Shown: positions 30,348 to 48,372, numbered from the stretch's first letter. The stretch is 64,000 nt of DNA from a bacterium (GCA_024226335.1 JAAELY010000545.1:10523-74522); one strand, 5' to 3'. The notes: generated from the letters alone by a model not told the origin. Numbers and translations: made by a program.

Positions 30348-30392
30348 AACGCAATCTCTTATAAGGTGCGGCTAAGTGGCGCAGACTAGCAA

Positions 30393-30788
30393 CTAGCCCA
30401 CGTCTGCGAGTGTGGTCGTTGAGGCCCACGAACGGAAGGCTTCACTCATCTGGACCCAGGCCGGATGCAATGGGCAGGGATCGCTCGGGTCACACGCACC
30501 CCAACCGAAAACACACCGGTCGTCACCGGGATAAGCGTCGACCGCAGCCAGGATTTCTGTAAAGGGAATCTCCGACGGTGGACGCGCCAGCTCGAAGCCC
30601 CCTCCCACTCCTTTGTAAGACTCGAGCACCCCGGCCACGACGAGACGTCGGAGAATTTTGGCCAGATACGGCGCGGGAATGCCCGTCTCATTGGAGAGAT
30701 CGCGAGCGCGGACCGGCGTCTCGTCGGGATTCGCCGCGAGCCAGGCCGCTGCGCGAAGAGCGTATTCGGCTGTCTGTGACAGGACCAT
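30393..30788 (-). CDS. nsrR: Rrf2-family transcriptional regulator, NsrR-like NO sensor.
   Basis: N-terminal wHTH (TAEYALRAAAWLA..). Three-Cys cluster CVFGWGACDPSDPCPLH. Upstream of nirS and divergent from the nnrS-like gene. Confidence 0.75.
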   Translation of the reverse strand: MVLSQTAEYALRAAAWLAANPDETPVRARDLSNETGIPAPYLAKILRRLVVAGVLESYKGVGGGFELARPPSEIPFTEILAAVDAYPGDDRCVFGWGACDPSDPCPLHPAWVQMSEAFRSWASTTTLADVG

Positions 30789-30801
30789 CCGCTGCCCGAC
30801 C

Positions 30802-30826
30802 TCGTTTCGCAGTCTCGTTTCGCAGA
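30802..30826. repeat. Tandem direct repeat 2x ctcgtttcgcag (1-nt spacer) in the nsrR/nnrS-like divergent region.
   Basis: cctcgtttcgcag t ctcgtttcgcag, seen directly in the sequence. Confidence 0.5.
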
Positions 30827-30876
30827 TTTCGTCCCGCCCTGGTGCTGCAAAACATGGACCGGAAGAACTCGATATC

Positions 30877-30889
30877 TGCTACTGTAGCA
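30877..30889. promoter_or_regulatory. Inverted repeat TGCTAC-T-GTAGCA in the nsrR/nnrS-like divergent promoter region; candidate Rrf2 operator.
   Basis: Perfect 6-1-6 palindrome in the sequence. Confidence 0.3.
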
Positions 30890-30961
30890 TCCTGGTGGAC
30901 CAACGGATCTGAAGGTCCACTATCCCCCCCATGGATCATCGCAGGCGAGGAGGCTCGAGGA

Positions 30962-32559: not shown

Positions 32560-33087
32560 ATGAGTATCCATCAGCCACCGGCTGACTGGTTCAAGGCACC
32601 GGACAGCACCGAGCGCCTGTGGGTGGGACTCGCGTTGATCTGGTGCCTGGTGATGTTCATCGCCATGCCGTACTGGTATTTTTACGGCAAGCAGAACAGC
32701 GTCGGTGAGGGGTACCTCGTCGAGCCGATGGAGTTCAGCCAGCGTGTCAGCAAGTTCGTAGAGACCAATAAGGTCGGCGAATTGAAGGGCATTCCGATCG
32801 TCGAGGCGGCGCCGGGAGGCGACGTCTATCTACAGGCGATGATGTGGAGCTGGTTCCCGGTCATCCAGATGCGCAAGGATCAAACCTACCGTCTGCACAT
32901 CTCGTCGTTGGACCTGCAACACGGCTTCTCGATACAGCCGCTCAACATGAACTTCCAGATCCTGCCCGGCTACGACCACGTACTGACCATCACGCCGACG
33001 AGTGCCGGCGAATTTTCGATCGTATGCAACGAGTTCTGCGGTATCGGGCACCACCTGATGACCGGCCGCATTCTCGTCGTCGAGTAG
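32560..33087 (+). CDS. Heme-copper oxidase superfamily subunit II, single TM plus a cupredoxin CuA domain (B-family / NOR-like).
   Basis: DLQHGFSI followed by CNEFCGIGHHLM gives the H...CxExCGxxHxxM CuA ligand set. 175 aa with one TM helix. Confidence 0.8.
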   Translation: MSIHQPPADWFKAPDSTERLWVGLALIWCLVMFIAMPYWYFYGKQNSVGEGYLVEPMEFSQRVSKFVETNKVGELKGIPIVEAAPGGDVYLQAMMWSWFPVIQMRKDQTYRLHISSLDLQHGFSIQPLNMNFQILPGYDHVLTITPTSAGEFSIVCNEFCGIGHHLMTGRILVVE

Positions 33088-33108
33088 GAGAGGCCGCGAT
33101 GACCACGA

Positions 33109-34847
33109 CGACCATCGGAGACGTCCCGTTCGAAGGCGGGGCTTCGGGAAACCACCAGGGCGCAGTCCGCAGTTGCGATACAACGGGCCTGCCCGTCTGC
33201 CTGGGCGCACAGCGCTTCATCAAGCTTCACGCAGTAGTCGCCGTCGTGTGGCTACTCATCGGCGGCACCGCCGCCATCCTGATCGCACTCACGCGTTGGC
33301 CGGCCGTGCATCTGCTCCCCGCAGACTGGTACTACCGGCTTCTGACACTGCACGGTCTCGACATGCTGATCTTCATGATCTTGAACTTCGAGATCGCGAT
33401 CCTGTATTTCGCAGGCACGACGTTGCTGAATTGCCGACTAGCATCGACCAAGGCCGCCTGGCTCGCTTTCGCGCTGATGCTGATCGGCGGCATCATGGTG
33501 AATATCGCGGTACTGAACGGCAGTAGCGATGTGCTGTTGACGTCGTACGTGCCCCTCAAGGCCAGCCCCTGGTTCTACCTGGGCATCATCCTCCTGGCCG
33601 TGGGTGCGCTGGTCGCAGTAATCAACTTCTTGGCCACGCTCTATATCGCGAAGCGAGACCACACCTACGAGGGTTCGGTGCCGCTCGTGGTATTTGGCGC
33701 GACGGCTGCCGCCATCATCGCAGTCGTGACCCTCTTGCACGGCGCGGTCGTGATGATCCCGACCTGGCTGTGGTCGATGGGCGTGGTCGAGTACATCGAT
33801 CCGGCCTGGTACCGCATAACCTGGTGGGCACTGGGCCATATGTCCCAGCAGATCAACGTATGCGCAATGGTCTCGGTCTGGTATCTGCTGGGGACACTGA
33901 CTGTAGGAGCTCAGCCGGTAAGTCAGCTCGTGTGCCGGGGCGCTTTCGTGCTCTACATCTTGTTCATCAACGTGGCTTCGGCCCACCACATCCTGGTCGA
34001 TCCGGCCGTGGGCGCAAGCTGGAAGATCTGGAACACCGGTTACGCCATGTACCTGGCCGTACTGGCTTCGATGATCCACGGCCTGACCGTACCGGCCTCG
34101 ATCGAGGTCGCCCAGCGCAAGAAGGGCTTCAACCGCGGTCTGTTCGGCTGGCTGGTGGCAGCTCCGTGGAGCAACCCGGGTTTCTCGGGTTTCTTCCTTT
34201 CGCTGATCATTTTCGGCTTCGGCGGCGGCATCACCGGAGTCGTGCTGGGCACGCAACAGATCAACATCATGGCGCACAACACACTGCGCATTCCCGGGCA
34301 CTTCCACGTGACCGTCGTAGGCGGTACGGCACTGGCTTTCATGGCAGTCACCTACTATGTGGTGCCCCTGATTTTCCAGCGCGAGTTCTACCTGAAGACC
34401 TGGTGCCGCATCCAGCCGTGGCTGTTCGGCGGCGGTATCACCCTGATGTCGATCGGCATGTCGTTCGCAGGTTCCTACGGGGTCCCGCGCCGGCACTGGG
34501 ACATGGAGTTCACAGGGGCCATGTTCTCGACCGGATTCGACTCGGGCGCACACCTGATGCTGGGCTTGATGGGAGTGGGTGCGATCATCGCAGTCACCGG
34601 CCTGTTGGTATTCGTCCTGCTCGTGGTCGCGGCCGTATTCTTCGGCCGCTCGAACGCGGGCCGCGCGATGACACCGTGGCACGAGGAACGGCAGGTCGCC
34701 GAGAAGTTCCGCACCGAAGACACAGCCGGAGATGACGAACACAGCATGCCGGGAACTCTTGTACTGGCACTGTTCTTCCTGGCCTGCTTCGTCGTGTACT
34801 ACTTCGCCAACTGGATGTGGCTGGCCGACGTCTGGCACGTGCGCTGA
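33109..34847 (+). CDS. Heme-copper oxidase superfamily subunit I, B-family-like. The helix VI Tyr is replaced by Gln (candidate eNOR-type NO reductase).
   Basis: TM2 LTLHGLDMLIFM (heme His). Helix VI WWALGHMSQQ aligns to WFFGHPEVY (His kept, Tyr replaced by Gln). Helix VII ASAHHILV (the HH pair). Helix X IPGHFHVTVVGG (HxH). RBS GAGG before the ATG at 33109. Confidence 0.75.
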
Positions 34848-34863
34848 TCGTGGAGAAACGACG

Positions 34864-35784
34864 ATGGAACGGATCACGCGCTTCGTAACGGGGGGCGGGC
34901 TACCCGCCTTTGCGCTGCCACTGCTGGTCTTCTATCAGGGGTTGCTGGTCGCTCTCCTGTTCACGCCACCCGCGGCGACGGGGCTGGGTGCGTTCGCTGA
35001 GGATTTCCGTCTCTGGTGTTTCGGTTACGACCCGTCGACGGGCAATCTGAGATGGGGCCCGGTTGTGGCCATGCTCCTACCACCACTGGTGCTGGGCGTG
35101 GCCTTTCTGGTTTTCTGGTGGAAACAGCTGGGCGAGATGGCGATGCGACCGATGACGCTGATCCGACCGGCCGCACTCGCGGCCAGCCTGGTCATTGCCG
35201 CCGCTTTCGTCTTCTCCCTGCTAGGCGGCAGCAGCCCGCAGGCGGGCGACCTGAGTTTTCCGGCAGACGCATTGCGCACGAGTTTCAAACCGCCCGAGAT
35301 CTCGCTGACCAGCCACACAGGGGAACCCGTCGACCTGGCACGATTGAAAGGCAAGGTCGTCCTGGTGACGGCTGTCTACGCCAGTTGCCCGCACACCTGC
35401 CCGCTGATCCTGACCCAGGCAAAAAAAGCCATCGCCGAACTGGATCCCACTGAGCGCCGAGATCTGCACGTGATCGGCGTGACCATCGACCCCTCCAACG
35501 ACAGCCCGGAAGTACTCGCCGAGCTGGCCGAGATGCACGACCTGACACCCCCTCTTTACAACCTGGTGACCGGTGACACCGCGGAAGTAGAGCGGGTTCT
35601 CGACGATCTCGGCGTCGCCAGGCAGTACAACGAAGAAACTGGACAGATCGACCACGCCAATCTCTTCGTTCTGGTGGACCGAAGCGGTCGCATCGCGTAC
35701 CGCTTCTCGCTTGGAGAGAACCAGCAGCGCTGGCTGGTTTCGGGCCTGCGCGTGCTACTGCACGAGCCCGGAAACCTTGGCTGA
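34864..35784 (+). CDS. SCO1/SenC-family copper chaperone with an N-terminal multi-TM membrane domain.
   Basis: Thioredoxin-like domain with CPHTCP (Cx3CP). 3-4 N-terminal TM helices. RBS GGAGAAA. Confidence 0.7.
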   Translation: MERITRFVTGGGLPAFALPLLVFYQGLLVALLFTPPAATGLGAFAEDFRLWCFGYDPSTGNLRWGPVVAMLLPPLVLGVAFLVFWWKQLGEMAMRPMTLIRPAALAASLVIAAAFVFSLLGGSSPQAGDLSFPADALRTSFKPPEISLTSHTGEPVDLARLKGKVVLVTAVYASCPHTCPLILTQAKKAIAELDPTERRDLHVIGVTIDPSNDSPEVLAELAEMHDLTPPLYNLVTGDTAEVERVLDDLGVARQYNEETGQIDHANLFVLVDRSGRIAYRFSLGENQQRWLVSGLRVLLHEPGNLG

Positions 35785-37834
35785 GCAGGCTCCGTCGCTA
35801 GGGCAACCCGTCCGCGCACACGGGGTCCTGGAACGACTCGAACGCGGTTTTCTGTACCTGGATCGACTGGTTGAGACGTTCCTCCCCCGATCGCTGAACG
35901 CCCTGCACCACACCGGCGCGATCGCAATCACCGCTCTTTTTGTCGCCACCGTCACGGGCGTGCTGCTGTTGCTCTGGTACCGACCGAGCGTCCACATGTC
36001 CTACTCATCGGTCGCGGCCATGTCGAGTCATCCTTGGACCGCCGGACTGATGCGCTCGCTGCACCGCTATAGCTCCGACGCCTGCGTTTTCTTCGTGCTG
36101 ATCCACTTCCTGCGCGTACTTTTTGAAGGGCGCTTTGCGGGGGCGCGCTGGTTGGCCTGGGTCACCGGGGTGATCACCGTCGGTTTTCTGGAGGTCGTCG
36201 GCTGGAGTGGTTACTGGCTGGTCTGGGATGCTCGCGCCCAGCACATTGCGACCGGCACGGCGCGCATGCTCGACGTACTGCCGATCGTGGTAGACCCGAT
36301 GGGGCGCTCCTTCCTGTTCGACGAAGCGGTCAACTCCCTGCTCTTCTTCGTCGTCTTCTTCATCCACATGCTGGTTCCAATCAGCCTCGCGATCGGCCTT
36401 TGGCTGCACCTGACACGTGTGAGTCGCTCGCGATTCGTCACCGAAACTCCGATGACGATCTGGACCCTGGGCCTTTTGATGCTGCTCTCGGTGGCCTATC
36501 CGGCGACGAATGCTCCTATCGCCGACCTGACCGCACTCGGGCAGAGCTTCACCATGGACTGGTGGTACCTGATGCCGCTCGCGTTCACCGACCGCTTATC
36601 CGGAGGCGCACTCTGGTCACTGGCGCTCGTGGTCGGTCCGGTGCTCGGCACCTTCCCCTGGTGGATGACCCGAGGCAAACCGAAACCCGCACGCGTCGAC
36701 CCCGCGCGCTGCAATGAGTGCCTGCAGTGTTACAACGATTGCCCCTTCGAGGCGATCACGATGATCCCCCGCACCGAAGCCAACCCGCGCTACGCCCTCC
36801 AGGCCGACGTGAATCCCGCGCGCTGCGTAGGTTGCGGAATCTGCTCGGGTTCCTGTGACTCCATCGCGATCGACCTGGACTGGTTCAACATCCGCGAACA
36901 GCGCAAGAAGATCGAAGGATGGCTGGCTGAAGCCGCAGAAAGGGACGAAAAGATCGATATCGCCGTCACCTGCACGAGTTCTGCGGGCGGCCTCCTTTCG
37001 ATCGACCGCGAAACCGGCGTTTGCAGCGAATTGCCGGGCTACCGCGTGCTCGAGGCACCGTGTGCGGGCTGGCTGCATCCCCTTACGCTCGAGCGAGCAC
37101 TGCGTCGCGGCGCCGATCGCGCGATCATCATCGGCTGTGGCGGAGAGTGCCACTATCGCGAGGGCACCGACTGGCTGAATCTTCGCCTGTCGGGGGAGCG
37201 CAATCCGACGCTGCGCACGCAATTCGTGGAGCGTGAGCGCATTTCCACGCTGTTCTTCGACCGCACGCGCAAAGCCGAGATGATTCGGGTCGCGAACACG
37301 CTTCACGACGATGGAACACGCGCGGCATCGAAACCCCTTTCGACTTTGCGCATGGGCCTGGCGTTCGTCACTACCGCCGTTATTACCGCGATGATCATCG
37401 GGTTGGTGAGCGATCTCAATTACTCCGCGCCGCAGGCCGATGGCTCGCAGCTCGTCGTTACGTTCAAACACCCCGGGCAGATGAGTGAAGACTGCCACGA
37501 ACTCTCGGAGGAAGAGAAGGCTGCGCTTCCCGTGCATATGCGCCTGGAGAAGATCTGCGACCGGGGACGCTCGGATGTGCGCCTGGCCGTGTACCTGGAT
37601 GGCGCATCCGTCCTGGAACGCGCCTACCCACCTGCGGGTTTCTGGGGCGATCTCAACAGCCTCGCTATCGAGGAGATCAACGTGAAACCGGGCGAACATC
37701 TCGTTGGCGTAAAGATCGGGGACAGCCGCGATCCCGATGAGTGGACCTTCGTCGCAGAGCGCAAACTGACTTTCGGCCTGGATAAGCGCGAAGTGGTCGC
37801 ATTCGACCGGCTCGCCGGTTTCAAGTGGTACTGA
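35777..37834 (+). CDS. Fusion protein: diheme cytochrome b (bc1/b6-type 4-helix core), then a 2x[4Fe-4S] ferredoxin domain, then an MvhD/FlpD-like domain, then a TM helix and a ~170-aa C-terminal domain. The start is uncertain: TTG 35777 or ATG 35711.
   Basis: Helix B LHRYSSDACVFFVLIH and helix D IHMLVPISLAIGLWLH are both H-x13-H. CNECLQCYNDCP and CVGCGICSGSCD are ferredoxin clusters. RAIIIGCGGECHYREGTDW is the MvhD-like CHY..G motif. A TM follows (LAFVTTAVITAMIIGLV). Confidence 0.65.
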   Translation: MAEQAPSLGQPVRAHGVLERLERGFLYLDRLVETFLPRSLNALHHTGAIAITALFVATVTGVLLLLWYRPSVHMSYSSVAAMSSHPWTAGLMRSLHRYSSDACVFFVLIHFLRVLFEGRFAGARWLAWVTGVITVGFLEVVGWSGYWLVWDARAQHIATGTARMLDVLPIVVDPMGRSFLFDEAVNSLLFFVVFFIHMLVPISLAIGLWLHLTRVSRSRFVTETPMTIWTLGLLMLLSVAYPATNAPIADLTALGQSFTMDWWYLMPLAFTDRLSGGALWSLALVVGPVLGTFPWWMTRGKPKPARVDPARCNECLQCYNDCPFEAITMIPRTEANPRYALQADVNPARCVGCGICSGSCDSIAIDLDWFNIREQRKKIEGWLAEAAERDEKIDIAVTCTSSAGGLLSIDRETGVCSELPGYRVLEAPCAGWLHPLTLERALRRGADRAIIIGCGGECHYREGTDWLNLRLSGERNPTLRTQFVERERISTLFFDRTRKAEMIRVANTLHDDGTRAASKPLSTLRMGLAFVTTAVITAMIIGLVSDLNYSAPQADGSQLVVTFKHPGQMSEDCHELSEEEKAALPVHMRLEKICDRGRSDVRLAVYLDGASVLERAYPPAGFWGDLNSLAIEEINVKPGEHLVGVKIGDSRDPDEWTFVAERKLTFGLDKREVVAFDRLAGFKWY

Positions 37835-37873
37835 CAAACTCGGTAGAATCCCTGCGGATTCGGCCGAGCCTCA

Positions 37874-38803
37874 TTGACTGAGTTTTCAGGAGCAACCATG
37901 ACGGTCGTGGACCCGGGCATCGCGCTGACTTCGAAAAGGACCTGGTCCGATCGGGCTCGCGCCTACTTCTCCCTCACACGCCCCCGTCTGCTGCCGCTCG
38001 TCTTGTTGACGGGGCCTGCGGCAATGATGCTCGGGAGCGCGTGGCCGGGAGCGGGCACGGCGACGGCGATCGTCGTGGCTACGGGCCTGCTGACCGGCGC
38101 TGCCGGTACTCTCAATGCCTGGTACGAGCGCGACCGGGACGCACTCATGGAGCGCACACGCGACCGCGCGCTACCGGCTCAGCGGATCTCCCCTCGGAGC
38201 GCACTCTGTTTCGGGCTGTTGCTAGCGACACTCGGGCTCGTGCTCGTTGGCGCCGCCGGTGGCTGGCTTGCCTTCGCAATCGGCCTGGCCGCCCTGCTCC
38301 ACTATCTGCTCGTCTACACCGTCTGGCTGAAACCGCGAACTCCGCTCGCGGTGGTCGTGGGAGGGATCTCGGGAGCGATCTCTCCACTGGTTGCGGGCGC
38401 AGCCGCTTCTGGCCAGATCGACCTCTGGAGCCTGGGACTGTTTGCGATCGTATTCGTGTGGCAGCCACCCCATTTCTGGGCAATCGCCCTGTATCGCCGC
38501 GATGAATACGCCAAAGCTGGATTCCCGGTATTGCCCAGCGCAATCGGGGCCCGCGCCACCCGCTGGCACCAACTCGCCTGGGCTCTCGCGTTGATTCCGG
38601 TGACGCTGATTCCCTGGCTGATCGGCCCGCTCGGTTTTGGTTACCTCGTCACAGCCGTGGCCGGCGGAACCTTCTTCTGCCTGCGCATCATTCAGGCTAT
38701 GCGCTGTAATTCGAAGACAGCCGATCGAGCGGTCTTCGCGGCTTCGCTTCTCTACCTGACCGGCTTGTTCGCGGTACTCACTCTCGAACTCGTGTGGGCC
38801 TGA
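37874..38803 (+). CDS. ctaB: Protoheme IX farnesyltransferase (heme O synthase).
   Basis: UbiA-family motif NAWYERDRDALMERTRDRALP. Nine TM helices. Confidence 0.8.
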   Translation: MTEFSGATMTVVDPGIALTSKRTWSDRARAYFSLTRPRLLPLVLLTGPAAMMLGSAWPGAGTATAIVVATGLLTGAAGTLNAWYERDRDALMERTRDRALPAQRISPRSALCFGLLLATLGLVLVGAAGGWLAFAIGLAALLHYLLVYTVWLKPRTPLAVVVGGISGAISPLVAGAAASGQIDLWSLGLFAIVFVWQPPHFWAIALYRRDEYAKAGFPVLPSAIGARATRWHQLAWALALIPVTLIPWLIGPLGFGYLVTAVAGGTFFCLRIIQAMRCNSKTADRAVFAASLLYLTGLFAVLTLELVWA

Positions 38804-39189
38804 ACTGGAGATGGGGCATTTCGTTGCATCACTTCGCTTTCTTCCGCTGCTTCTGCCTTGCCCGAGACCGACAGACCTTTGGGCGCGGGAAGATCGTCAT
38901 CGGACGAGCGGAGCGAATCCCTCGGCCCGCTTCGAGCGCGCGAAAAGCTGAAGTGGCGAGTCAGTTATGCGAGACTCCGCCAAGTCTGTCCGGGAATGAG
39001 CACTGGTGTGGCACGAAGGCCAGTAGTGGGGTTATTCGCCACATACCCGCAACGCGGCAGAGAACAGGTCGCAGGACAGAAAATCTTTCCAGAACAAGTA
39101 CTTGAGCCGTATTCAGATCGCACCGTGCTTGGCATGCGAGTTGCGATCCGGACAGCGAAAATTCTCCAAGAAAAAGAGGGGGACACAGG

Positions 39190-41487
39190 GTGTCGATCTC
39201 ACGACTGACGCGCTGCGCGGGCCTGATCGGGCTGGCGCTCGGATTCCTGGTAACGGGTGCGCTTACAGCGCATGCACAGACACTCCAGGAAGTGATGAAA
39301 GCTCGCGAACTGACTCAGAAAGACGTGCTGGCCGCAGCCAAAACCTACGTACCGACGGGCAAGCGCGACGAGTACCTCGTGTTCAGCTCGGGCGGTCAGA
39401 ACGGCTCGGTCATCGTGTACGGCATTCCTTCGATGCGCCTTCTGAAGTACATCGCGGTATTCGCGCCCGAGCCGTGGCAGGGCTACGGCTTCGAGGAAGA
39501 AAGCAAGCGGGTGCTCGAGCAAGGCTATATGAACGGGCGGGAAATCACCTGGGGCGACACGCATCACCCCGCGCTTTCCGAAACCGGAGGCAACTACGAC
39601 GGCCAGTACCTGTTCATCAATGACAAGGCCAATCCGCGCCTCGCGGTGATCGACCTGCACGACTTCGAGGCCAAGCAGATCGTCGTCAATCCGATCTTCC
39701 AGTCCTCGCACGGCGGTGCGTTCGTTTCCAACGACACGGAGTACGTGATCGAAGCCGCGCAGTATCCCGCGCCTCTGGGTGGTGAGTATGCGCCGCTGCA
39801 ACAGTTCGACGACAAGTATCGCGGCGGCGTCACCTACTGGAAGTTCAACCGCGAGAAGGGGCGACTCGAGCCCGAAAACTCGTTCTCGATCGAACTTCCG
39901 CCGTACTCACAAGACCTGAGTGACTTCGGCAAGGGGCCCAGCGAATCCTGGACATTCACGAACTCGTTTTGCACTGAGCGATACGTGGGCGGGATCGAAC
40001 TCGGGCGTCCGCCCTTCGAGGCCGGTTGCTCGGCCAAGGACACCGACTACCTGCACATGGTCAATTGGCGCAAAGCGGTGAAGGTCGCGGCGGCCGGCAA
40101 GACGACAAAGATAAACGGACATAACGTCATTTCGATCGAGACGGCCGTGAAGGAAGGCCTGGTCTTTCTGATTCCCGAACCGAAGAGCCCCCACGGAGTC
40201 GATGTGTCGCCCGACGGCAAGTACATCGTGATCTCGGGCAAGCTCGACTCGCACGTATCGGTCTATAGCTTCGCGAAGATGAAAGCCGCGATCGACGCCA
40301 AGAAGTTCGCATCGACCGACCCCTACGGGATTCCAATCCTCGATCTCAAGGAGTCTTTGCACACCCAACTGGCGCTTGGACTGGGCCCCCTGCACTCGCA
40401 GTTCGGTTCCGAGCCGGGCGTGGTCTACACCTCGCTGTATGTAGACTCGCAGGTGGCGCGCTGGAACTATCTCGAAGGCAAGCTGCTCGACAAGATCTCC
40501 ATCCACTACAACATCGGCCACCTGATGACCATGCACGGAGATACGGTCGCGCCGGAAGGCAAGTATCTCGTGTCCTTGAACAAGCTGGCGATCGACCGTT
40601 TCAATCCGGTCGGCCCGTTACATCCGCAGAACCACCAACTGATCGACATCTCGGGCAAGAAGATGCAACTGCTCTACGATATGCCACTTCCGCTGGGAGA
40701 ACCGCACTACGCCCAGGCGATCCGCGCGTCCCTCCTTAAACCGCGGGTGCGCTACAAGTCGGGCACGAACACCCGAACAGGTCAACGCTCACCTTTCAAG
40801 ACGCGTGCTGGAGAAGAGCGTATCGAGCGCAACGGCAAGAAGGTCGAAGTCTTCGGTACGTTGATCCGCTCGCACATCACGCCCGAGATCATCGAAGTCG
40901 AAGAAGGGGATGAAGTCACCATCCACCTGAGCAATCTGGAGCGGGCCGAGGACCAGACGCATGGATTCACGGTCAGCAAGTACAACGTGCACGGCTCTTT
41001 CGAGCCAGGCGAGACTGCGACGGTTGCCTTCACCGCTGACGTCGCGGGAGTCTTCCCGTACTACTGCACGGAGTTCTGCTCTGCGTTGCACCTGGAGATG
41101 GAAGGTTATCTGCTCGTCAGACCCAAGGGCTTCGTGGCCCCGGTCGGCGAACTCGAAGCCAAGGAACGTTACACCAAGGCTGACTTCGAAAAGCAGGTAA
41201 AGACCAACGTAGAAACCCAGGCCGTGATCGATTCAGTCGTTGCCTACATCACGAGCGTCAACTACAAGAGCTTTCCCGAAGTGGCGAGTCTGATGGAAGA
41301 CGCCGTCGATCAACTCGGCCGCATGGAAGGAGCCAAGGAGAAGGCGGAAACAGCCGCAGCCGCCGGAGACTATCAGAACGCGACTCTCTGGGCCGGACAG
41401 TGGTGGCAATACCAGGTAAAGGCCGCCGACATCGGTCTTCGGGCAAAGACTTTCCTGGAGCAACACGGCGCGACACCGGTGCAGTAG
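39190..41487 (+). CDS. nosZ: Nitrous oxide reductase NosZ, Sec-dependent (clade II) type with a ~110-aa C-terminal extension. GTG start.
   Basis: Sec-type signal (no twin-Arg). ITWGDTHHP is the CuZ His region. CTEFCSALHLEMEGY is the CuA motif. 765 aa. AAGAGGGGG RBS. Confidence 0.9.
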   Translation: MSISRLTRCAGLIGLALGFLVTGALTAHAQTLQEVMKARELTQKDVLAAAKTYVPTGKRDEYLVFSSGGQNGSVIVYGIPSMRLLKYIAVFAPEPWQGYGFEEESKRVLEQGYMNGREITWGDTHHPALSETGGNYDGQYLFINDKANPRLAVIDLHDFEAKQIVVNPIFQSSHGGAFVSNDTEYVIEAAQYPAPLGGEYAPLQQFDDKYRGGVTYWKFNREKGRLEPENSFSIELPPYSQDLSDFGKGPSESWTFTNSFCTERYVGGIELGRPPFEAGCSAKDTDYLHMVNWRKAVKVAAAGKTTKINGHNVISIETAVKEGLVFLIPEPKSPHGVDVSPDGKYIVISGKLDSHVSVYSFAKMKAAIDAKKFASTDPYGIPILDLKESLHTQLALGLGPLHSQFGSEPGVVYTSLYVDSQVARWNYLEGKLLDKISIHYNIGHLMTMHGDTVAPEGKYLVSLNKLAIDRFNPVGPLHPQNHQLIDISGKKMQLLYDMPLPLGEPHYAQAIRASLLKPRVRYKSGTNTRTGQRSPFKTRAGEERIERNGKKVEVFGTLIRSHITPEIIEVEEGDEVTIHLSNLERAEDQTHGFTVSKYNVHGSFEPGETATVAFTADVAGVFPYYCTEFCSALHLEMEGYLLVRPKGFVAPVGELEAKERYTKADFEKQVKTNVETQAVIDSVVAYITSVNYKSFPEVASLMEDAVDQLGRMEGAKEKAETAAAAGDYQNATLWAGQWWQYQVKAADIGLRAKTFLEQHGATPVQ

Positions 41488-41497
41488 GAGATCAAGA

Positions 41498-41839
41498 GTG
41501 ATACGACCGATTTTTTCATTCACACTCGTCCTGACCCTCGCTCTGGCATGGGCCGGCTCGGGAAGCGCAGAAGATTCCGGCAAGAATCCAGACGGCGCGA
41601 CGCTGTATAACGAACGCACTTGCGTCGCCTGTCACGGGAAGGATGCGAAAACCCCGATCCTACCCGTGTATCCGAAACTCGCCGGGCAAAACGCCGACTA
41701 CATGCTGCAACAGATGAAGGACATCAAGAGCGGCGCGCGTAACAACGCGAATACAGCGGCGATGAGGGCTGTGATGGTCCTGGTAAATGAACAAGAGATG
41801 GGAGCTCTGGCGAGCTACATCTCCACCCTCAAGCCATAA
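41498..41839 (+). CDS. Monoheme c-type cytochrome, nos-cluster associated.
   Basis: Signal peptide. CVACHG. Confidence 0.75.
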   Translation: MIRPIFSFTLVLTLALAWAGSGSAEDSGKNPDGATLYNERTCVACHGKDAKTPILPVYPKLAGQNADYMLQQMKDIKSGARNNANTAAMRAVMVLVNEQEMGALASYISTLKP

Positions 41840-41852
41840 AGGAGAGCATCGG

Positions 41853-42566
41853 ATGCTCAGTCCGCGAACACCCGCTTCCATCATCGTATTGCTGCTGCTC
41901 GTCTTCACGCCCGCACTGGCACTAGCTCAGGCACCAGCCAAGAGCGAAGGCATCGAGTCAGAGGGCTATAAGTGGAACGACATGATCGGAGAGAAGGTCA
42001 AGGCGCTCACGCTCGAAGGTGACATCGAGAACGGCGAAGAAGCGTATGAGATCTGCGCCGCCTGCCACCTGCCCAACGGCGCGGGTCGTCCTGACGGAAC
42101 CTTTCCGCAGCTTGCGGGCCAGCACTCGACGGTGTTGATCAAACAGATCGCGGATATTCGCGAGGGACGGCGCGATAACCCGACCATGTACCCCTTCGCC
42201 AAGACGCTTGTCGATCCCCAGGAGTTGGCAGACGTGGCGGCCTACATCCAGACCCTGCCGATTCCCACCGGCGCAGGGAAGGGTGGAGGCGAAGCACTGG
42301 AACTGGGCGAGAAGCTCTACAAGCGCGACTGTACTTCGTGTCACGGGAAATTCGGCGAAGGGAACAAGGACAAGTTCTTCCCCGTACTCGCGGGCCAGCA
42401 CTACAAGTACCTGCTTCGACAGATCGGCGACATTGCCGAAGGACGACGCCGAAATGCCAACCCCGATATGGTGAAGGTGGTCAAGAGTTACAAAGAAGAT
42501 GAACTGAAGGCCGTGGTCGACTACATGTCTCGACTGCGCTGGCCCGAGCGCGAAGCCAAGGACTGA
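41853..42566 (+). CDS. Diheme cytochrome c4-like.
   Basis: Signal peptide. CAACH and CTSCHG are the two CXXCH motifs. AAGGAGAG RBS. Confidence 0.75.
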   Translation: MLSPRTPASIIVLLLLVFTPALALAQAPAKSEGIESEGYKWNDMIGEKVKALTLEGDIENGEEAYEICAACHLPNGAGRPDGTFPQLAGQHSTVLIKQIADIREGRRDNPTMYPFAKTLVDPQELADVAAYIQTLPIPTGAGKGGGEALELGEKLYKRDCTSCHGKFGEGNKDKFFPVLAGQHYKYLLRQIGDIAEGRRRNANPDMVKVVKSYKEDELKAVVDYMSRLRWPEREAKD

Positions 42567-42569
42567 AGA

Positions 42570-43265
42570 ATGCAGCGTGGCCCGATCCCCGCCGCGCTGA
42601 GCGCACTCGCGGTCGTATTGATGACCGCGGGCTATTTCTCGCCGATGTGGTGGGTGTCGCTGACGGCTCCCAACTACCCGGAACACACGTTTCCAGACGG
42701 CGTTCGCATTCACATGCACTTCAACGGCGTGTTCAACGGTTGCCAGGCCCGCGAAAGCGAGGAAGTCTACGAAGAAGAGGGCCTGGATTGCGTGCACGAG
42801 ATGAACACCATCAACCACTACATCGGCATGGAGGCGCTGGAGCGCGGCGCACAGCACGAGTTCGCGATTGCGCCGTTTGTTTTCGTGCTCTTCGGTGCAC
42901 TCGCGATCGTCGCGCTGTTCTACTCGGGACCACTGTGGTGGATACTCCCTCTGCCGGCGATCTTGCTCCCTGTGTTATTCGTGGTCGACTTCGCGGCCTG
43001 GCTCTGGTGGTTCGGCCACAACCTCCACCCCTGGGCGGCGTTCACGGTAAAACCGTTCATGCCTACAGTGCTCGGACAAGGCAAAGTCGCACAGTTCAGC
43101 ACGTATTCTTATCCCCAGTACGGAATGGGCCTGATGTGTCTCGCATCCTTCAGCCTGCTGCTCTCGACTCTGATCCGTCGCAAGACGATCGCAAAGCAGA
43201 AGTCGGCTTCCTCCGTCGGTCCGCGGGCCGGGGAGGCAACGGGTGAGCCAGGCGCTTCGCTTTGA
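42570..43265 (+). CDS. nosB: Integral membrane protein, NosB-like (clade II nos-cluster accessory).
   Basis: 4-5 TM helices. Sits between the nos cytochromes and nosD, as in Sec-type nos clusters. Confidence 0.4.
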   Translation: MQRGPIPAALSALAVVLMTAGYFSPMWWVSLTAPNYPEHTFPDGVRIHMHFNGVFNGCQARESEEVYEEEGLDCVHEMNTINHYIGMEALERGAQHEFAIAPFVFVLFGALAIVALFYSGPLWWILPLPAILLPVLFVVDFAAWLWWFGHNLHPWAAFTVKPFMPTVLGQGKVAQFSTYSYPQYGMGLMCLASFSLLLSTLIRRKTIAKQKSASSVGPRAGEATGEPGASL

Positions 43266-44508
43266 TGCGCGGCGGAAGCGCGCCCTCCTAGCCGCGCTCT
43301 GGCTGGCTCTCCTGCTGCCAAGCGCGGAAGCCGTACCCGGTTCTGGGCTTCCCTCGTTTCAGAGACTCGTCGATGCCACGCCCACAGGAGGTCTGCTCCA
43401 GCCCAAGGCAGGAATCTACGCTGGGCCAGTCGTCATACGCCGAGCCATGCGTATCGACGGCGCGAACTCGGTCGAGATCCGCAACGGAGGCGTGGGTACG
43501 GTCGTGACCATCAATGGCGATGACATCGTGCTGCGCGGACTGCACCTGAGCGGATCCGGCGAGATTCACGATACCCTGGACGCCTGTGTTCGGGTTCGAG
43601 GCCACCGGAATACGATCGAACAGAACCGACTCGACGATTGCCTGTTCGGAATCGAACTCCAGAAATCTGACGACAATCTGCTGCGCGGGAATACGATCAC
43701 CTCCAAGCCCTTGATGATGGGCCTGCGCGGTGACGGGATCCGGCTGTGGTACAGCATGCGCAATCGTATTGAACACAATCGGATTCGCGACGTGCGCGAC
43801 ACAGTCGTCTGGTATTCGCGCGACAACGTGATCTCAGACAACGTCACGAGTGGAAGCCGCTACGCGCTGCACTTCATGTACGCCCAGGAGAACGTGGTCG
43901 AGCGAAATGACTACCACGGAAATCTGGTAGGCATTTTTCTCATGTACAGCGACGACGTGATCGTCCGAGACAACCGCATCTATCGATCGGTGGGTCCCAC
44001 GGGAATGGGGATCGGCTTCAAGGAGACGAGCAGAGTCCGAGTAGAGCGCAATTCGATCCTGTACAACGCCGCCGGTATCTATCTGGACGTCTCACCCTAC
44101 CAGCCTGGATCGACCAATCAGATCCTCGACAATCGGATCGCGTTCAACGGAAGCGGGGTGCTGTTCCACACGGACTGGCCGGGGAATGTGCTCAGCGGGA
44201 ATCGCTTTGAAGGCAATCACGCCCAGGTAGCCGTTCGCGGGGGTGGGAGCGTGCGACGCAATTCCTGGAAGGGCAACTACTGGGACGATTACCAGGGCTT
44301 CGATCGCGATGCAGACGGGATCGGAGACACGCCTTACAAGCTGATGGCCTACTCCGATCGGCTCTGGATGGAAGTTGCGGCCATCGAATTCTTCCGAGCC
44401 TCACCCGCACTCGAAGCACTCGACTTCCTCGAACGCCTACTCCCCTTCAGCAAGCCAACCGTCATTCTCGAAGACTCACAGCCTGTCTTCCATGGGGATG
44501 GAGACTGA
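43243..44508 (+). CDS. nosD: NosD, periplasmic right-handed beta-helix (CASH) copper-processing protein.
   Basis: Signal peptide. Repeated parallel beta-helix units (NRIEHNRIRDV, VERNDYHGNLVGIF, VERNSILYNAAGIYL). Confidence 0.8.
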   Translation: MSQALRFDARRKRALLAALWLALLLPSAEAVPGSGLPSFQRLVDATPTGGLLQPKAGIYAGPVVIRRAMRIDGANSVEIRNGGVGTVVTINGDDIVLRGLHLSGSGEIHDTLDACVRVRGHRNTIEQNRLDDCLFGIELQKSDDNLLRGNTITSKPLMMGLRGDGIRLWYSMRNRIEHNRIRDVRDTVVWYSRDNVISDNVTSGSRYALHFMYAQENVVERNDYHGNLVGIFLMYSDDVIVRDNRIYRSVGPTGMGIGFKETSRVRVERNSILYNAAGIYLDVSPYQPGSTNQILDNRIAFNGSGVLFHTDWPGNVLSGNRFEGNHAQVAVRGGGSVRRNSWKGNYWDDYQGFDRDADGIGDTPYKLMAYSDRLWMEVAAIEFFRASPALEALDFLERLLPFSKPTVILEDSQPVFHGDGD

Positions 44509-45289
44509 GGTGAGCGAAGCCAGACCGAACAAGAAGCGCGCTCGGAGGCGCCCGAAGCTCGGACGCAAGCAGGAACGGCGCAGGCAGGTCCTTCGCAGTT
44601 TCATGGTCGGAGCGGGGATCGTGCTCCTGCAGCCTCTGGCCTGGCTTCCCGTCATCCGTCGCTGGCAGACTCGGCTGCGCCCGCCCGGAGCCCTCGAGGA
44701 GAGTGAATTCCTGGCCGCCTGCATCAAGTGCGGTCAATGCGTGCAGGTCTGTCCGGTGCAGGCCATTGCACTCGCGGATGCCGACGATGGACTCGGGGTC
44801 GGTGTTCCCTTCATTGAAGCGCGCGCTCAAGCTTGTGATTTCTCTTGTGACGCCCTCTCCTGCATTCTCGCCTGTCCGACAGGCGCCCTCGATCACGAGG
44901 TCAGCGCCAAGGAAGAAGTTCAAGCGGGTGTAGCAGTCCTGACGAATCCAGACACCTGCCTTGCACGACATGGCCTGGAGTTCCGAGGCAAGGCGCGCGG
45001 CGGCGAATTCGACGGCCTTCTGCGCTACAAGGAAATCGACCGCTGGACTCCTCTATCCGTCGGCGGTCACTCCTACGACCGCGACCTGTGCGACCTCTGC
45101 GTTCTCGAGTGCCCGATCGGCGAAAAGGCGATCGGACTCATTCCGCTGGGAGCTGAAGCTCCGAAGGGAGCCATGACACCCGAAGTACGGAAAGCCTGCG
45201 TGGGCTGTGGCGTCTGCGAGATGATCTGCCCGGTAGCAGATGCGCCGTCGATCGCGGTCAAACCGCGCGAGCACTGGAAGAACGCATGA
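44491..45289 (+). CDS. nosG: NosG, NapG-like 4x[4Fe-4S] ferredoxin. The start is uncertain: 44491, 44497 or 44509.
   Basis: CIKCGQCVQVCP, CDFSCDALSCILACP, CDLCVLECP, CVGCGVCEMICP. Confidence 0.7.
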
Positions 45290-46242
45290 GACTACTCAAG
45301 GATCTCGGCGTGATGCTAGGCCGTGCTCCGCGACGAGCGCAGAGGATTTCCGATGCGGCCAAGGCCGTGTATGCGGCGAAACGGGGCTATCTGCAAAGGG
45401 ACGCACTCCTTGCCGAGATGGCCGCAGATCCGCGACCTCATCCCTGGCGCAAGAAGCGCTGGGCCGTTCTGATCTCGACCAACCTGCTGTTCACTCTGTC
45501 ATTCTGGGTCGATGTGCAACTGGTCGAAGGATCGATGACAGCCTCGCGCTTTCTGGGCTTCCATATGGCTGACCCCTATTCGAGTCTGCTCGTCGTACTC
45601 GCGCACCGGCACATCTTCGTGAACCTGATGATCGGCGCTATCACCGCGATGATCTTCTGGACGCTGCTGGGCGGACGCAGTTTCTGCTCCTGGGTCTGCC
45701 CCTATCACTTTGTCTCGGAACTGGGAGAGATGCTACACCTGCGACTCGCGGAAAAAGGGTGGGTACGCGATCACATCCTGCACCGCGGGGTCCGGAGTGC
45801 GCTATGGATCGTCTTCGCGCTACTCGCGTTCGGGAGCGGGTACGTGCTCTTTCTCGCCCTCAATCCAATCGGCATCCTGAGCCGTGCCCTGGTTTACGGC
45901 CCGAGCCTGGCCCTGGCCTGGGTGGGAATGATCCTACTCTTCGAAGTCTTCTACTCGCGTCGCGCATGGTGTCGCTACGTCTGCCCGGTCGGGCTGAGCT
46001 ATGGCTTGCTCGGACTTCTCGCACCATTGCGCGTGACCTATGACCTGGAAGCTTGCAGCCACGAAGGCGAGTGCCGCAAGGTTTGTGAAGTACCGCACGT
46101 ATTGGAGATGACCATCAAGGGACGTGCAGAGGATCTGAGTGTGGACATCGGTCCGGATTGCACGCGCTGCGGCATGTGTGTCGACGTGTGCCCGACCGAT
46201 TCGTTGAACTTCAAGGTGCGCGGCGTCGGTGACCTGCTTTGA
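45286..46242 (+). CDS. nosH: NosH, NapH-like membrane FeS protein.
   Basis: TM CxxCP motifs (FCSWVCP, WCRYVCP). C-terminal clusters CRKVCEVP and CTRCGMCVDVCP. Confidence 0.75.
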   Translation: MRLLKDLGVMLGRAPRRAQRISDAAKAVYAAKRGYLQRDALLAEMAADPRPHPWRKKRWAVLISTNLLFTLSFWVDVQLVEGSMTASRFLGFHMADPYSSLLVVLAHRHIFVNLMIGAITAMIFWTLLGGRSFCSWVCPYHFVSELGEMLHLRLAEKGWVRDHILHRGVRSALWIVFALLAFGSGYVLFLALNPIGILSRALVYGPSLALAWVGMILLFEVFYSRRAWCRYVCPVGLSYGLLGLLAPLRVTYDLEACSHEGECRKVCEVPHVLEMTIKGRAEDLSVDIGPDCTRCGMCVDVCPTDSLNFKVRGVGDLL

Positions 46243-47123
46243 ATTCACCGGTGATCGGGATCGCGGGGCTCACGAAAGGGTTCGGCCGCAAGTCTGTGCT
46301 AGAAGGCGTCGACCTGGACATCGTAACGGGTGAGCGGGTCGCGCTGGTCGGCGCAAACGGTGCAGGCAAGACCACTCTGGTGCGCTGCCTGCTGGGTGAG
46401 TACGCTCACGGGGGATCGGCGCTGATCGGCGGTGCTTCGGCACGCGAGCAGCGACGCGAAGTCCTTTCGCGCGTCGGCTTCGTGCCGCAGACCCCTCCCC
46501 CCCTGCCCCATCCGGTCGGTGTGCTGATTGGCTTCGCGGCATCGATCTGCAGGTGTGAACCGCGCGACATCCAGGCCGTGGCAACCCGCCTGGGCATGGA
46601 CGCTCGTGACGTCTGGCGTCAGCCCTTCGTCAAACTCTCGGGCGGGCAGAAGCAGAAACTATTGATCGCGATCGCCCTGGGACGGCAGACTGAGGTTCAA
46701 ATCATGGACGAACCAGCGGCCAACCTGGACCCGGATGCCCGACGTGTTTTCTTCGAACTACTGGCCGAGCGCAGCGAGGGCCAGACCATGCTGCTGTCCA
46801 GCCATCGCCTGGACGAGGTCTCGGGCCTGGTGAACCGCGTGGTCGAGATCGATTCCGGGCGCGTCTCCTTGGATTCTCCGCTCGCCGACGCGGTCTCGCT
46901 GTCGACTCTGCTCTCCTGCGAACTCCGACTGCGACGCAACGAGCGGACAATCGCCCTCACTCTCGAGAACTGGGGCCTGCGCGATCAAGGCGACGGCTTG
47001 TATTTCAAGGGACGCATTGCCGGACCCGATAGACTGCGCTTCATGGGCATGCTCTCTCGCTATTCCGGCCTGGTCGCCAACCTCGTCCTGCGCGAAGAAC
47101 CGGGCCAAGAGGACGGTGGATGA
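46239..47123 (+). CDS. nosF: NosF, ABC transporter ATP-binding protein.
   Basis: Walker A GANGAGKTT. Signature LSGGQKQK. Walker B IMDEP. Confidence 0.8.
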   Translation: MNSPVIGIAGLTKGFGRKSVLEGVDLDIVTGERVALVGANGAGKTTLVRCLLGEYAHGGSALIGGASAREQRREVLSRVGFVPQTPPPLPHPVGVLIGFAASICRCEPRDIQAVATRLGMDARDVWRQPFVKLSGGQKQKLLIAIALGRQTEVQIMDEPAANLDPDARRVFFELLAERSEGQTMLLSSHRLDEVSGLVNRVVEIDSGRVSLDSPLADAVSLSTLLSCELRLRRNERTIALTLENWGLRDQGDGLYFKGRIAGPDRLRFMGMLSRYSGLVANLVLREEPGQEDGG

Positions 47124-47548
47124 CACGCCTGTTTTCGCTGCTGATCGCGTTGCTATGCGCCTGCTCTGAGCCGAGCACCGGGCCGACGCCGATCCGCTGG
47201 GATCGGGACACTTGCGAGCGTTGTCGCATGACCATTTCAGATCCGCGTTTCGCAGCGCAGATCCGACTCTCGGACTCGGGCCAGGTCCGCGACTTCGACG
47301 ATCTGGGCTGCGCAGTACTCTGGCTGGATGAATCCGAAGCGCGGTATTCGGAAATCTGGATTCGGGACCACCGCACGAGCGTCTGGCTGGATGCTCGGCA
47401 GGCGTACTACGAACCGGCGCGGGGCACACCCATGGACTTCGGCTGGGGAGCAACGAGCGATCCGGGCGAGAAACACCTGAGTTTCGAGCAAGTGCGCGCT
47501 CGCGTTCGCAGTGAAGAACGAAGTGCCCATGGGAGCGTCAGACGATGA
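47120..47548 (+). CDS. nosL: NosL-like copper chaperone lipoprotein.
   Basis: Lipobox LLCACS. DTCERCRMTISDPRFAAQI is the NosL-type Cx2CxM motif. Confidence 0.6.
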   Translation: MTRLFSLLIALLCACSEPSTGPTPIRWDRDTCERCRMTISDPRFAAQIRLSDSGQVRDFDDLGCAVLWLDESEARYSEIWIRDHRTSVWLDARQAYYEPARGTPMDFGWGATSDPGEKHLSFEQVRARVRSEERSAHGSVRR

Positions 47549-48372
47549 GTGCACTCCTCGCCACTGCCCACCTTGACGTGAGCGAATCGCTACGCGCACG
47601 CTGGTTCCTGGTCTACTCGCTGGTCTTCGGCGGTGCGGTCGCTCTGCTATTCGCTCTAGGGCTTACGGAGTCGCGCGTACTCGGCCTGATCGGGCTATCG
47701 CGTTTCCTCGCCACCTACATCCAGCTGTGCATGGCCATCCTGCCGATCTTCGTCCTGTTGACGACCGTGCGCTCCGTAGCTGGCGATCGCGAGGCGGGCA
47801 TCAACGAGTATCTGCTCGCCCTGCCCATCCCTCTCTGGGCCTGGTACTGGGGAAAACTCCTGGGACGCTTTGCGGTTGTATTCCTGCCCGTTTTCCTGGC
47901 AATGGCGGCGGCTGCGGGCTGGGCGAGTTGGAGTGAGGCCCACGTTCCGTGGCGTCTCTTCGCCATCTACTCCGGGCTGCTCGCGGGCCTGATCTGGTGC
48001 TTTCTCGGCCTGGGGATGCTGATCTCGACGCTGGCGCGCTCTGTCGACGTAGCCCAGGGAGCGGCCTTCGTACTCTGGCTCGGCTTGTTGCTCTTTCTGG
48101 ATCTGATCCTGCTCGGCCTGTTGATTCAGGGCGGCATCGAAGCCGATACCGCGATCGGTCTGGCACTGGCCAACCCGCTTCAGGTCTTCCGGACCGGTGC
48201 GATGATGCTATTCGATCCGGAGCTGATCGTACTCGGACCGACGGCATTCGTGATCTTTGATACCTTCGGTCACGAAGCGTATCTGGCGTGGGCCGCCCTG
48301 TATCCCGTCACACTCGGCTCACTCGCGGCAATCGCAGGTTTCCTGGCCTTTCGTCGCGGTGATCTGCCCTGA
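47545..48372 (+). CDS. nosY: NosY, ABC-2 type permease.
   Basis: Six TM helices. Follows nosF and nosL. Confidence 0.7.
   Translation: MSALLATAHLDVSESLRARWFLVYSLVFGGAVALLFALGLTESRVLGLIGLSRFLATYIQLCMAILPIFVLLTTVRSVAGDREAGINEYLLALPIPLWAWYWGKLLGRFAVVFLPVFLAMAAAAGWASWSEAHVPWRLFAIYSGLLAGLIWCFLGLGMLISTLARSVDVAQGAAFVLWLGLLLFLDLILLGLLIQGGIEADTAIGLALANPLQVFRTGAMMLFDPELIVLGPTAFVIFDTFGHEAYLAWAALYPVTLGSLAAIAGFLAFRRGDLP

Follow-up and report, generated by a model that had tools for sequence, protein, structure and literature searches.

The 64,000-nt stretch GCA_024226335.1 JAAELY010000545.1:10523-74522, which at its full length of 64 kb is called the window below, carries at positions 39190-48372 of the plus strand ten co-directional genes: nosZ, the genes of a monoheme and a diheme cytochrome c, nosB, nosD, nosG, nosH, nosF, nosL and nosY. 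With a probability of about 0.85, as estimated from sequence comparison, we regard this region as a complete canonical operon of clade II (Sec-dependent) nitrous oxide (N2O) respiration, nosZ-C1-C2-B-D-G-H-F-L-Y, situated inside a denitrification gene island of a metagenome-assembled genome (MAG) that is probably related to Myxococcota, and the tail of its NosZ as a flexible linker followed by an autonomous three-helix bundle. The cluster itself adds one more MAG-borne copy of a widespread standard clade II operon, which is already auto-annotated in GenBank. What goes beyond present annotation is that the NosZ tail is recognized as a domain family of its own, autonomous, unannotated and showing a pattern of fission and fusion.

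NosZ and the genes that follow it

Gene calls were based on the list of open reading frames (ORFs) for 36-52 kb and on Pfam and NCBIfam scans of the encoded proteins. An earlier note on this DNA had listed the genes of the cluster, and every one of them was found at its expected position by Pfam, NCBIfam, a NosB reference match and motif inspection (Table 1). Gaps and overlaps between successive neighbors (10, 13, 3, -23, -11, -4, -4, -4 and -4 nt) are so small that the genes fit a single operon.

Assignment of NosZ to the Sec-type clade II, also proposed in that note, agrees with the model scores. The protein reaches 875.5 bits with the Sec-dependent model TIGR04246 (cutoff 625, aa 49-645), as against 388.5 bits, i.e. 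under the cutoff of 625, with the Tat-type model TIGR04244, and it scores 176.8 bits with the clade III (lactonase-type) model NF052460; these values favor the Sec type and do not place NosZ with clade I. Its N-terminus reads MSISRLTRCAGLIGLALGFLVTGALTAHA and continues with Q, the hydrophobic core lies by inspection at aa 9-27, and no RR dipeptide was seen anywhere in the protein sequence; judged by these features, it is a classical Sec signal peptide. The CuA motif CTEFCSALHLEM was registered at aa 626-637. Alignment of the window NosZ with 51 homologues revealed that the CuZ histidines H125, H126, H174, H335, H402, H444 and H506 and the CuA ligands H591, C626, C630, H634 and M637 are all invariant, and NosZ is, by homology, a catalytically complete clade II enzyme. 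The GTG codon at 39190 is favored as its start, because the ribosome-binding site in front of it (GAGGGGG) is good and homologues from 80 species-level genomes align from residues 1-5 onward. GenBank entry MCP4007719.1 (“MAG: Sec-dependent nitrous-oxide reductase [bacterium]”, 116-kb contig) is 100% identical to the window protein; it is 730 aa long and begins at M36, so that the signal peptide (window 39190-39297) is missing, and its deposited start is probably too far downstream.

Annotations of all other genes in the earlier note, including the NapGH-like nature of NosGH, were upheld by hidden Markov models, the NosB reference, heme motifs and comparison with NapGH. The monoheme cytochrome c has its only CXXCH at aa 42, its gene starts 10 nt past the nosZ stop, and the same type of gene directly follows nosZ in most of 80 related loci. 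In the diheme protein, the position of which is kept in relatives, CXXCH motifs are located at aa 68 and 160; the ORF list opens this gene at 41787, and the ATG at 41853, which yields an N-terminal signal peptide, is the likely start. NosB found no match in the Pfam/NCBIfam scan. It is 42% identical (E 2e-43) to NosB of Sulfurimonas denitrificans (ABB45043.1, a reference from PMC11409646 Text S1), and nosB is a marker of clade II (PMC11409646). None of the operon proteins reaches the cutoff of 1000 with the NosR model, NosH being the best with 16.7 bits. The window also encodes a genuine NapG (20413-21270, minus strand; 323 bits with the NapG equivalog) and a genuine NapH (19586-20416, minus strand; 343 bits with the NapH equivalog), to which NosG and NosH, respectively, are each 33% identical (E 7e-29 and E 3e-44). 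Given this identity to separate genes, NosG and NosH are considered paralogues of NapG and NapH, as expected for NosGH. In relatives nosL is kept between nosF and nosY with 34-53% identity.

Table 1. Features of the nos operon and of the neighboring denitrification genes (positions in the window; cutoffs are those of the models)
Feature	Position	Strand	Properties	Evidence
Candidate sigma-54 -24/-12 element	39130..39144	+	TGGCATgcgagTTGC	46 nt upstream of nosZ start
nosZ, clade II N2O reductase	39190..41487	+	765 aa; signal peptide ~aa 1-29, beta-propeller + CuA cupredoxin core to aa 645, linker, C-terminal bundle	TIGR04246 match
NosZ C-terminal three-helix-bundle domain (predicted)	41170..41469	+	aa 661-760, after linker aa 646-660	AlphaFold2 model and conservation
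Monoheme class I cytochrome c	41498..41839	+	113 aa, signal peptide, CVACH; NosC position	PF00034 E 4.9e-11
Diheme c4-like cytochrome c	41853..42566	+	237 aa, CAACH + CTSCH	two PF00034/PF13442 domains
nosB, integral membrane protein	42570..43265	+	231 aa, ~4 hydrophobic segments (hydropathy)	NosB reference match
nosD, periplasmic beta-helix maturation protein	43243..44508	+		TIGR04247 370.7 bits (cutoff 300); PF05048 E 3.7e-41
nosG, NapG-like poly-ferredoxin	44498..45289	+	263 aa from ATG 44498, 16 Cys, Tat-like RRRQVL	NapG model E 7.4e-42
nosH, NapH-like membrane quinol dehydrogenase subunit	45286..46242	+	318 aa	TIGR02163 NapH/MauN 242.6 bits (cutoff 213)
nosF, ABC ATPase of NosDFY transporter	46239..47123	+		PF00005 E 1.9e-23; 48-63% identity and position kept in relatives
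nosL, small Cu-chaperone-like lipoprotein	47120..47548	+	142 aa, LLCAC lipobox-like N-terminus	PF05573 24.6 bits (cutoff 24, borderline)
nosY, ABC-2 permease	47545..48372	+	275 aa, 6-7 hydrophobic segments	PF12679 E 6.4e-15; 59-72% identity in relatives
nirN-like, nirF-like, nirJ, ahbAB-like (heme d1)	14142-19024			
napB	19071-19589	-		
napG + napH	19586-21270	-		NapG/NapH equivalogs
napA	21210-23810	-		1434 bits
nirS	28591-30429	-		Cytochrom_D1 407 bits
CuA-type subunit II of nitric oxide reductase candidate	32560-33087	+	...CNEFCGIGHHLM	
Subunit I of nitric oxide reductase candidate	within 32844-34847	+		best solved relatives ba3-type B-family oxidases, E ~1e-38

The earlier note implied that the long NosZ, the gene organization and its combination with nap, nirS and nor are unusual, and in this respect it does not hold. 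The best 120 database matches to NosZ are 730-1287 aa long and cover 95-100% of the query. A scan of relatives with one genome per GTDB species gave 80 loci with NosZ at 68-78% identity, and tblastn with the ten window proteins found the order Z-c1-c2-B-D-G-H-F-L-Y in nearly all untruncated loci among them; matches to NosZ in these species-level genomes mostly reach residues 756-765 and thus include the tail. The nearest relatives belong to MAGs of Myxococcota/“Deltaproteobacteria” (75-78% identity), further ones to Sulfuricella, Sulfuritalea, Azonexus hydrophilus DSM 23864, Azospira, Candidatus (Ca.) Accumulibacter phosphatis (NC_013194), Magnetovibrio, Terasakiella and tubeworm symbionts, among others. 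The five betaproteobacterial clusters of this list and those of the Myxococcota MAGs have a ten-gene order identical to that of the window and a NosZ of ~765 aa with the C-terminal bundle, 68-78% identical to the protein studied here; only sequence divergence and neighborhood set the window apart from them. Among clusters already described, those of Accumulibacter, Azonexus and Azospira stand nearest to it. Clade II nosZ together with NapAB, NirS and genes of NO reduction has already been described in Azospira sp. I13 (PMC5958258), and with nap, nirS and NO reduction in Ca. Dechloromonas occultata (bioRxiv 10.1101/695007); nir and nor are carried by clade II genomes too, although less commonly than by clade I (PMC11409646). 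There is, consequently, nothing unusual in the length of NosZ, in the gene set or in its co-occurrence with a full denitrification complement.

The C-terminal bundle of NosZ and its homologues

An extension without heme behind CuA, which the earlier note had pointed out, is indeed present: residues 646-765 of NosZ (120 aa) contain no Cys, one His and no CXXCH. They start beyond the end of TIGR04246 (aa 645) and beyond all solved NosZ structures, which are of clade I and with which the alignment made by phmmer against PDB covers only aa 37-646; no NosZ structure was found by PDB sequence search to match past aa 646. A Pfam search of the tail at E<=10 returned only noise (PRTRC_E 0.043, MVL 0.1), an NCBIfam search gave no match, and the PDB matches that Foldseek gave for the tail model were all generic or designed bundles of helices (best E 0.26). 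In the AlphaFold2 model of full-length NosZ three helices are predicted at 663-688, 696-724 and 728-758, the predicted local distance difference test score (pLDDT) of this block being 79-89 and that of the preceding linker ~55, while modeled alone the tail forms a three-helix bundle with a mean pLDDT of 91.7. Its sequence is well conserved: 21 positions, including QxxQYQVKxADxGLR in helix 3, are invariant in 46 sequences that are 53-73% identical to the window tail. Based on these models and on conservation, the tail is a predicted autonomous three-helix-bundle module that is standard for this subclade of NosZ and has no family annotation in the libraries searched. The extension is therefore not an oddity but the normal state of the subclade, as the coverage of the 120 best matches indicates, and of the two properties considered in the earlier note, that of being a common domain and that of being an annotated one, the former was confirmed and the latter was not. 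In the literature searched, the tail was nowhere described as a domain, and the sole mention of it was a one-sentence remark (PMC11828985).

Certain points weigh against the identification of the operon and of its modular NosZ as formulated above. The scores of NosG fall under the curated cutoffs of the NapG/MauM family (143 bits against 269 for the NapG equivalog, E 7.4e-42, and 125.6 against 178.85, E 1.9e-36). The probable relation of the host to Myxococcota is drawn only from similarity of NosZ, and horizontal transfer readily affects nos clusters. How the bundle is positioned against the NosZ core is uncertain, the model being that of a monomer with low pLDDT in the linker.

Clade I clusters nosRZDFYL(X) (Pseudomonas stutzeri, Paracoccus, Marinobacter and Shewanella; PDB 3sbp, 1fwx, 1qni and 5i5m) have the same core of a CuZ propeller and a CuA cupredoxin (phmmer E ~1e-90, aa 37-645) and share NosD, NosF, NosY and NosL with the window. 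They differ from it in Tat export, in NosR/NosX instead of NosB/NosGH and in the absence of the bundle, their chains ending where the window tail begins. A type of NosZ with a fused heme c domain, known as cNosZ, was considered for the window protein and rejected, since it has no heme motif and its tail has no Cys.

An exhaustive phmmer search with the tail alone against 1.84 billion cluster representatives gave 76 matches, to which a profile search was added; a word-index database of 5.8 billion sequences returned almost only C-terminal NosZ fragments from contig ends, the architecture of which is uninformative. Four architectures can be distinguished among the phmmer matches. In some, as in the window, the bundle is fused to the NosZ core (e.g. 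P0140 of 749 aa and P0160 of 779 aa), while in P0151 (863 aa) the core and the bundle (661-764) are followed by a heme c motif, CNGCH. The 90% cluster of P0151 is the “Sec-dependent nitrous-oxide reductase” of Aliarcobacter butzleri, and since the bundle precedes the heme c domain in this cNosZ, the tail corresponds to the linker half of the extension found in cNosZ of Campylobacterota. In the third form the bundle is a protein by itself, 127-162 aa long and equipped with a signal peptide, and in the fourth it stands N-terminally in front of two, four or more cytochrome c domains (P0181, P0195 and P0196), which are of the YPKLAGQN...DIKSGAR type, like the monoheme cytochrome of the window. A cytochrome domain of this monoheme type is fused behind the bundle in P0181, P0195 and P0063. 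The last of them (1287 aa, 73% identical to the window NosZ, 40.5-kb contig from NCBI/ENA) combines NosZ, two bundles in succession, two NosC-like cytochromes and, as its C-terminal part, the diheme c4-like module, and is thus equivalent to the first three genes of the window in one polypeptide.

MAFFT aligned 16 representatives of the four architectures over ~100 residues with no gap inside this stretch. In NosZ-fused and standalone forms helix 3 (WxxQxWQYQVKAADxGLRAK) is strongly kept; in cytochrome-fused ones it is not. Conservation of the bundle spans Myxococcota, Beta-, Gamma- and Alphaproteobacteria, Campylobacterota and Nitrospirae, and among the sequences found it has so far been met only with Sec-type clade II enzymes.

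In five lineages (loci L081, L082, L083, L088/L089 and L090) standalone bundle genes encode 130-134 aa and begin 12-24 nt past the stop codon of a tail-less nosZ. The latter has 649 aa before P0136 (L081), 652 aa before P0146 (L082), 672 aa before P0187 (L083) and 651 aa before P0344 (L090, Nitrospirae MAG GCA_016214845.1, “hypothetical protein HZB61_03475”), and before P0193 (L088, L089) it is truncated at the contig end and aligns to query aa 653. Downstream of P0136, P0146 and P0344 there is a cytochrome c gene and then nosD; P0187 is followed by a 135-aa protein with CSGCH, a NosB homologue and nosD, and P0193 by a 135-aa protein, a NosB homologue, two small genes and nosD. The tail-less proteins of L081-L083 end with ...GYL(L/M)VKP(A), precisely where the window tail begins. 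Such split-tail clusters, of which the Nitrospirae MAG is an example, thus hold the same bundle between the NosZ core and cytochrome c as the window does, but as a separate gene of ~132 aa with a signal peptide, beside a NosZ of 649-672 aa, and some of them have NosR-like genes and no NosB/NosGH. About 20 further standalone proteins of 132-136 aa, none of them with a Pfam domain, were revealed by the profile search. An origin of these genes from artefactual stop codons or frameshifts was rejected: they have their own signal peptides and a uniform size of 130-136 aa, and their frame differs from that of nosZ in L082 and L083, only L081 being in frame. Dependence of the tail on NosB/NosGH was rejected as well, because L081, L082 and L090 carry the bundle together with NosR-like genes and without NosB/NosGH; what the bundle goes with is therefore NosZ and cytochrome c, not NosB/NosGH.

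Some other homologues were registered in less regular surroundings. Locus L086 (1-2405) has tandem nosZ genes with a 157-aa bundle homologue (P0154, lipoprotein-like signal) between them, and the upstream NosZ keeps its fused tail. P0191 is located on a 1.6-kb contig with uninformative context. P0195 (L084/L085, 8001-9668) consists of a signal peptide, the bundle and four NosC-type cytochrome c domains, and no nosZ was found within ~8 kb upstream and 3 kb downstream of its gene on contigs with sparse gene calls, so that the divergent cytochrome-side subtype of the bundle also exists away from nosZ. P0182 (753 aa) keeps the bundle and has lost the CuA cysteine motif (…YPFQAGGPAGLADVELRGYLLVRP) together with several histidine motifs of the propeller; perhaps it is a NosZ paralogue that has degenerated or taken on another use.

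Possible role of the bundle in the electron route

For Wolinella succinogenes, as far as the work of Simon et al. 2004 and Hein et al. 2017 is summarised in PMC8139620 and PMC11409646, the features in common with the window are a Sec-exported NosZ, NosB, NapGH-like NosGH, two c-type cytochromes and NosDFY/L. The Wolinella cNosZ has a heme c domain, whereas the window NosZ lacks CXXCH and, as the comparison with Aliarcobacter butzleri shows, has only the bundle half of the cNosZ extension. The cytochrome genes of the window directly follow nosZ, while those of Wolinella lie between nosG and nosH; one of the window cytochromes is diheme, and the order is F-L-Y as against F-Y-L. The model for the W. 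succinogenes cluster nosZBDGC1C2HFYL considers NosGH a menaquinol dehydrogenase (PMC8139620). By analogy, the membrane complex of NosGH, paralogous to NapGH, would oxidise quinol in the host of the window operon, and electrons would pass through the two periplasmic c-type cytochromes to CuA of NosZ and then to CuZ, where N2O would be reduced to N2. Copper centers would be assembled by NosDFY and NosL; NosB is a clade II-specific membrane protein.

Within this scheme the bundle may be a scaffold or docking site that keeps the cytochrome c donor close to CuA, a tentative reading to which we give somewhat less than even odds. It is proposed because the order core-bundle-cytochrome c persists through fusion and fission, because the bundle joins directly after the last CuA cupredoxin strand through a flexible linker, and because a divergent copy of it sits N-terminally in cytochrome proteins. 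The bundle is acidic, with an isoelectric point (pI) of 4.9, and the mature monoheme cytochrome is mildly basic (pI 8.05), which lends weak support to docking. What has to be set against this role is that the link between bundle and cytochrome consists only of gene order and domain fusions, that cytochrome c1 of the window itself has no bundle partner domain, and that the sole published remark about the tail suggests stabilization of the active site, not docking (PMC11828985). The broader supposition, according to which the tail represents an unannotated periplasmic bundle family of ~100 aa serving as a modular part of clade II N2O reductases, be it fused to NosZ, secreted as a separate subunit or placed N-terminally on multi-cytochrome c proteins, and tethering a cytochrome c donor at CuA, is put forward with still more reserve, at odds of perhaps one to two.

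That remark leads to another explanation, in which the bundle has no part in donor binding and instead stabilizes the head-to-tail dimer of NosZ or shields CuA/CuZ of the neighboring monomer. AlphaFold models of some clade II NosZ are reported to have the C-terminal helix wrapped around the edge of CuA/CuZ in the adjacent monomer, where it may add to stability (PMC11828985), and the preservation of helix 3 in NosZ-fused and standalone bundles, but not in cytochrome-fused ones, fits a NosZ-binding surface. Repeated fusion or adjacency of the bundle to c-type cytochromes is left unexplained in this way, clade I enzymes are stable dimers without it, and the flexible linker (pLDDT ~55) speaks against a rigid brace; as a sole function, stabilization is rather unlikely, though a serious candidate. 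Stabilizing and docking roles are not mutually exclusive and can coexist in one module. The bundle could also serve maturation or localization of Sec-exported apo-NosZ, being an intramolecular chaperone or a membrane dock for NosB, NosD or NosL. The restriction of the bundle, as observed so far, to Sec-type clade II enzymes, which fold and take up copper in the periplasm, would be explained in this case, and NosB is likewise clade II-specific (PMC11409646). Nevertheless the bundle occurs in clusters without NosB/NosGH (L081, L082 and L090), the NosD, NosF and NosY of which show no obvious change, and in the sequences found it is fused to cytochromes and never to maturation proteins, which makes such a function improbable. 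Finally, homology of the tail with the linker region of cNosZ and the start of the cytochrome c gene just 10 nt past the nosZ stop might be taken as traces of a cytochrome c domain once fused and later lost or split off, with the tail surviving as a vestigial linker without function. The 21 positions invariant in 46 sequences, conservation across six bacterial groups and the fact that several lineages keep the bundle as a gene apart, signal peptide included, are not expected of a functionless remnant and render this explanation highly improbable; purifying selection on the tail is suggested by the conservation among the 46 sequences and by the alignment of the 16 representatives. Thus both maturation and vestige fit the data less well than docking and stabilization.

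Surroundings and significance of the operon

The element TGGCATgcgagTTGC upstream of nosZ is the only exact match to TGGCAY-N5-TTGC on both strands of the window (0.2 expected by chance). It is a candidate sigma-54 promoter and a weak lead, and is treated only as a lead because it is not conserved in relatives: a motif of this type precedes nosZ in one of 80 related loci (Myxococcota L003). NtrC-type sigma-54 activators adjoin the nos clusters in L082 and L083. No FNR/NnrR box was found in 38803-39190, the window-wide count of such boxes being not above chance, and no sigma-70-like promoter was found upstream of nosZ.

The statement of the earlier note that the operon accompanies a complete nap, nirS and nor complement is valid as regards nap and nirS, while the nor part requires correction. 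A canonical norBC or qNOR was rejected for the candidate genes at 32560-34847, since they have no NorB/qNOR match, their PDB relatives are of the ba3 type and the Tyr is replaced by Gln. In subunit I, the active-site position of Tyr in HPxVY reads HMSQQ, with the two adjacent CuB histidines kept, and a Gln at this site is described as characteristic of eNOR (PMC8756737, PMC11214002). Judged by sequence, the nos operon has a single nitric oxide reductase candidate in its vicinity, an eNOR-like heme-copper enzyme derived from the B family, and a complete denitrification complement with this non-canonical member is plausible in the window.

Several further genes were registered between the elements of the island. 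The three genes separating the eNOR-like pair from nosZ (34732-38803, plus strand) encode a SCO1/SenC-like protein, a 707-aa fusion and a heme O synthase of the UbiA family. The fusion includes cytochrome b (aa 55-237), a 4Fe-4S dicluster domain (327-384), an FlpD/MvhD-like domain (442-531) and a C-terminal part of ~170 aa without match; this architecture is unusual and was not detected upstream of nosZ in the 80 related loci. In comparison with the betaproteobacterial and Myxococcota clusters, the window operon is distinguished by its adjacency to the eNOR-like module, this cytochrome b/Fe-S/FlpD fusion and the heme O synthase, none of which was detected in the upstream sequence of relatives (up to 10 kb). 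A gene that separates nirS from the eNOR-like pair (30578-32404, plus strand) encodes a 608-aa polytopic membrane protein with a weak COX1 match in Pfam (45.7 bits) and no match in NCBIfam or PDB sequences; this protein possibly belongs, as a far diverged member, to the heme-copper superfamily. The region between nap and nirS (24147-28511, minus strand) encodes a WD40 beta-propeller (24147-25124), a DsrP/NrfD-like protein (25111-26334), a DsrO-like Fe-S protein (26340-27431) and a multiheme cytochrome (27903-28511), which together resemble an alternative-complex-III or Qrc-like quinol:cytochrome c module.

With nos beside nap, nirS and the eNOR-like gene, the window only adds confirmation that organisms with genes for all steps of denitrification can have nosZ of clade II. 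The bundle is of greater consequence, as it provides a concrete hypothesis for donor recruitment by N2O reductases of clade II, which dominate N2O consumption in many soils and wastewater plants, and it flags the small “hypothetical proteins” encoded next to tail-less nosZ as probable subunits of NosZ. Should the bundle indeed hold the cytochrome c donor in place, enzymes of clade II would possess an integral module for donor recruitment that clade I enzymes lack, and one may speculate that such a module might bear on the reported kinetic differences between the two clades.

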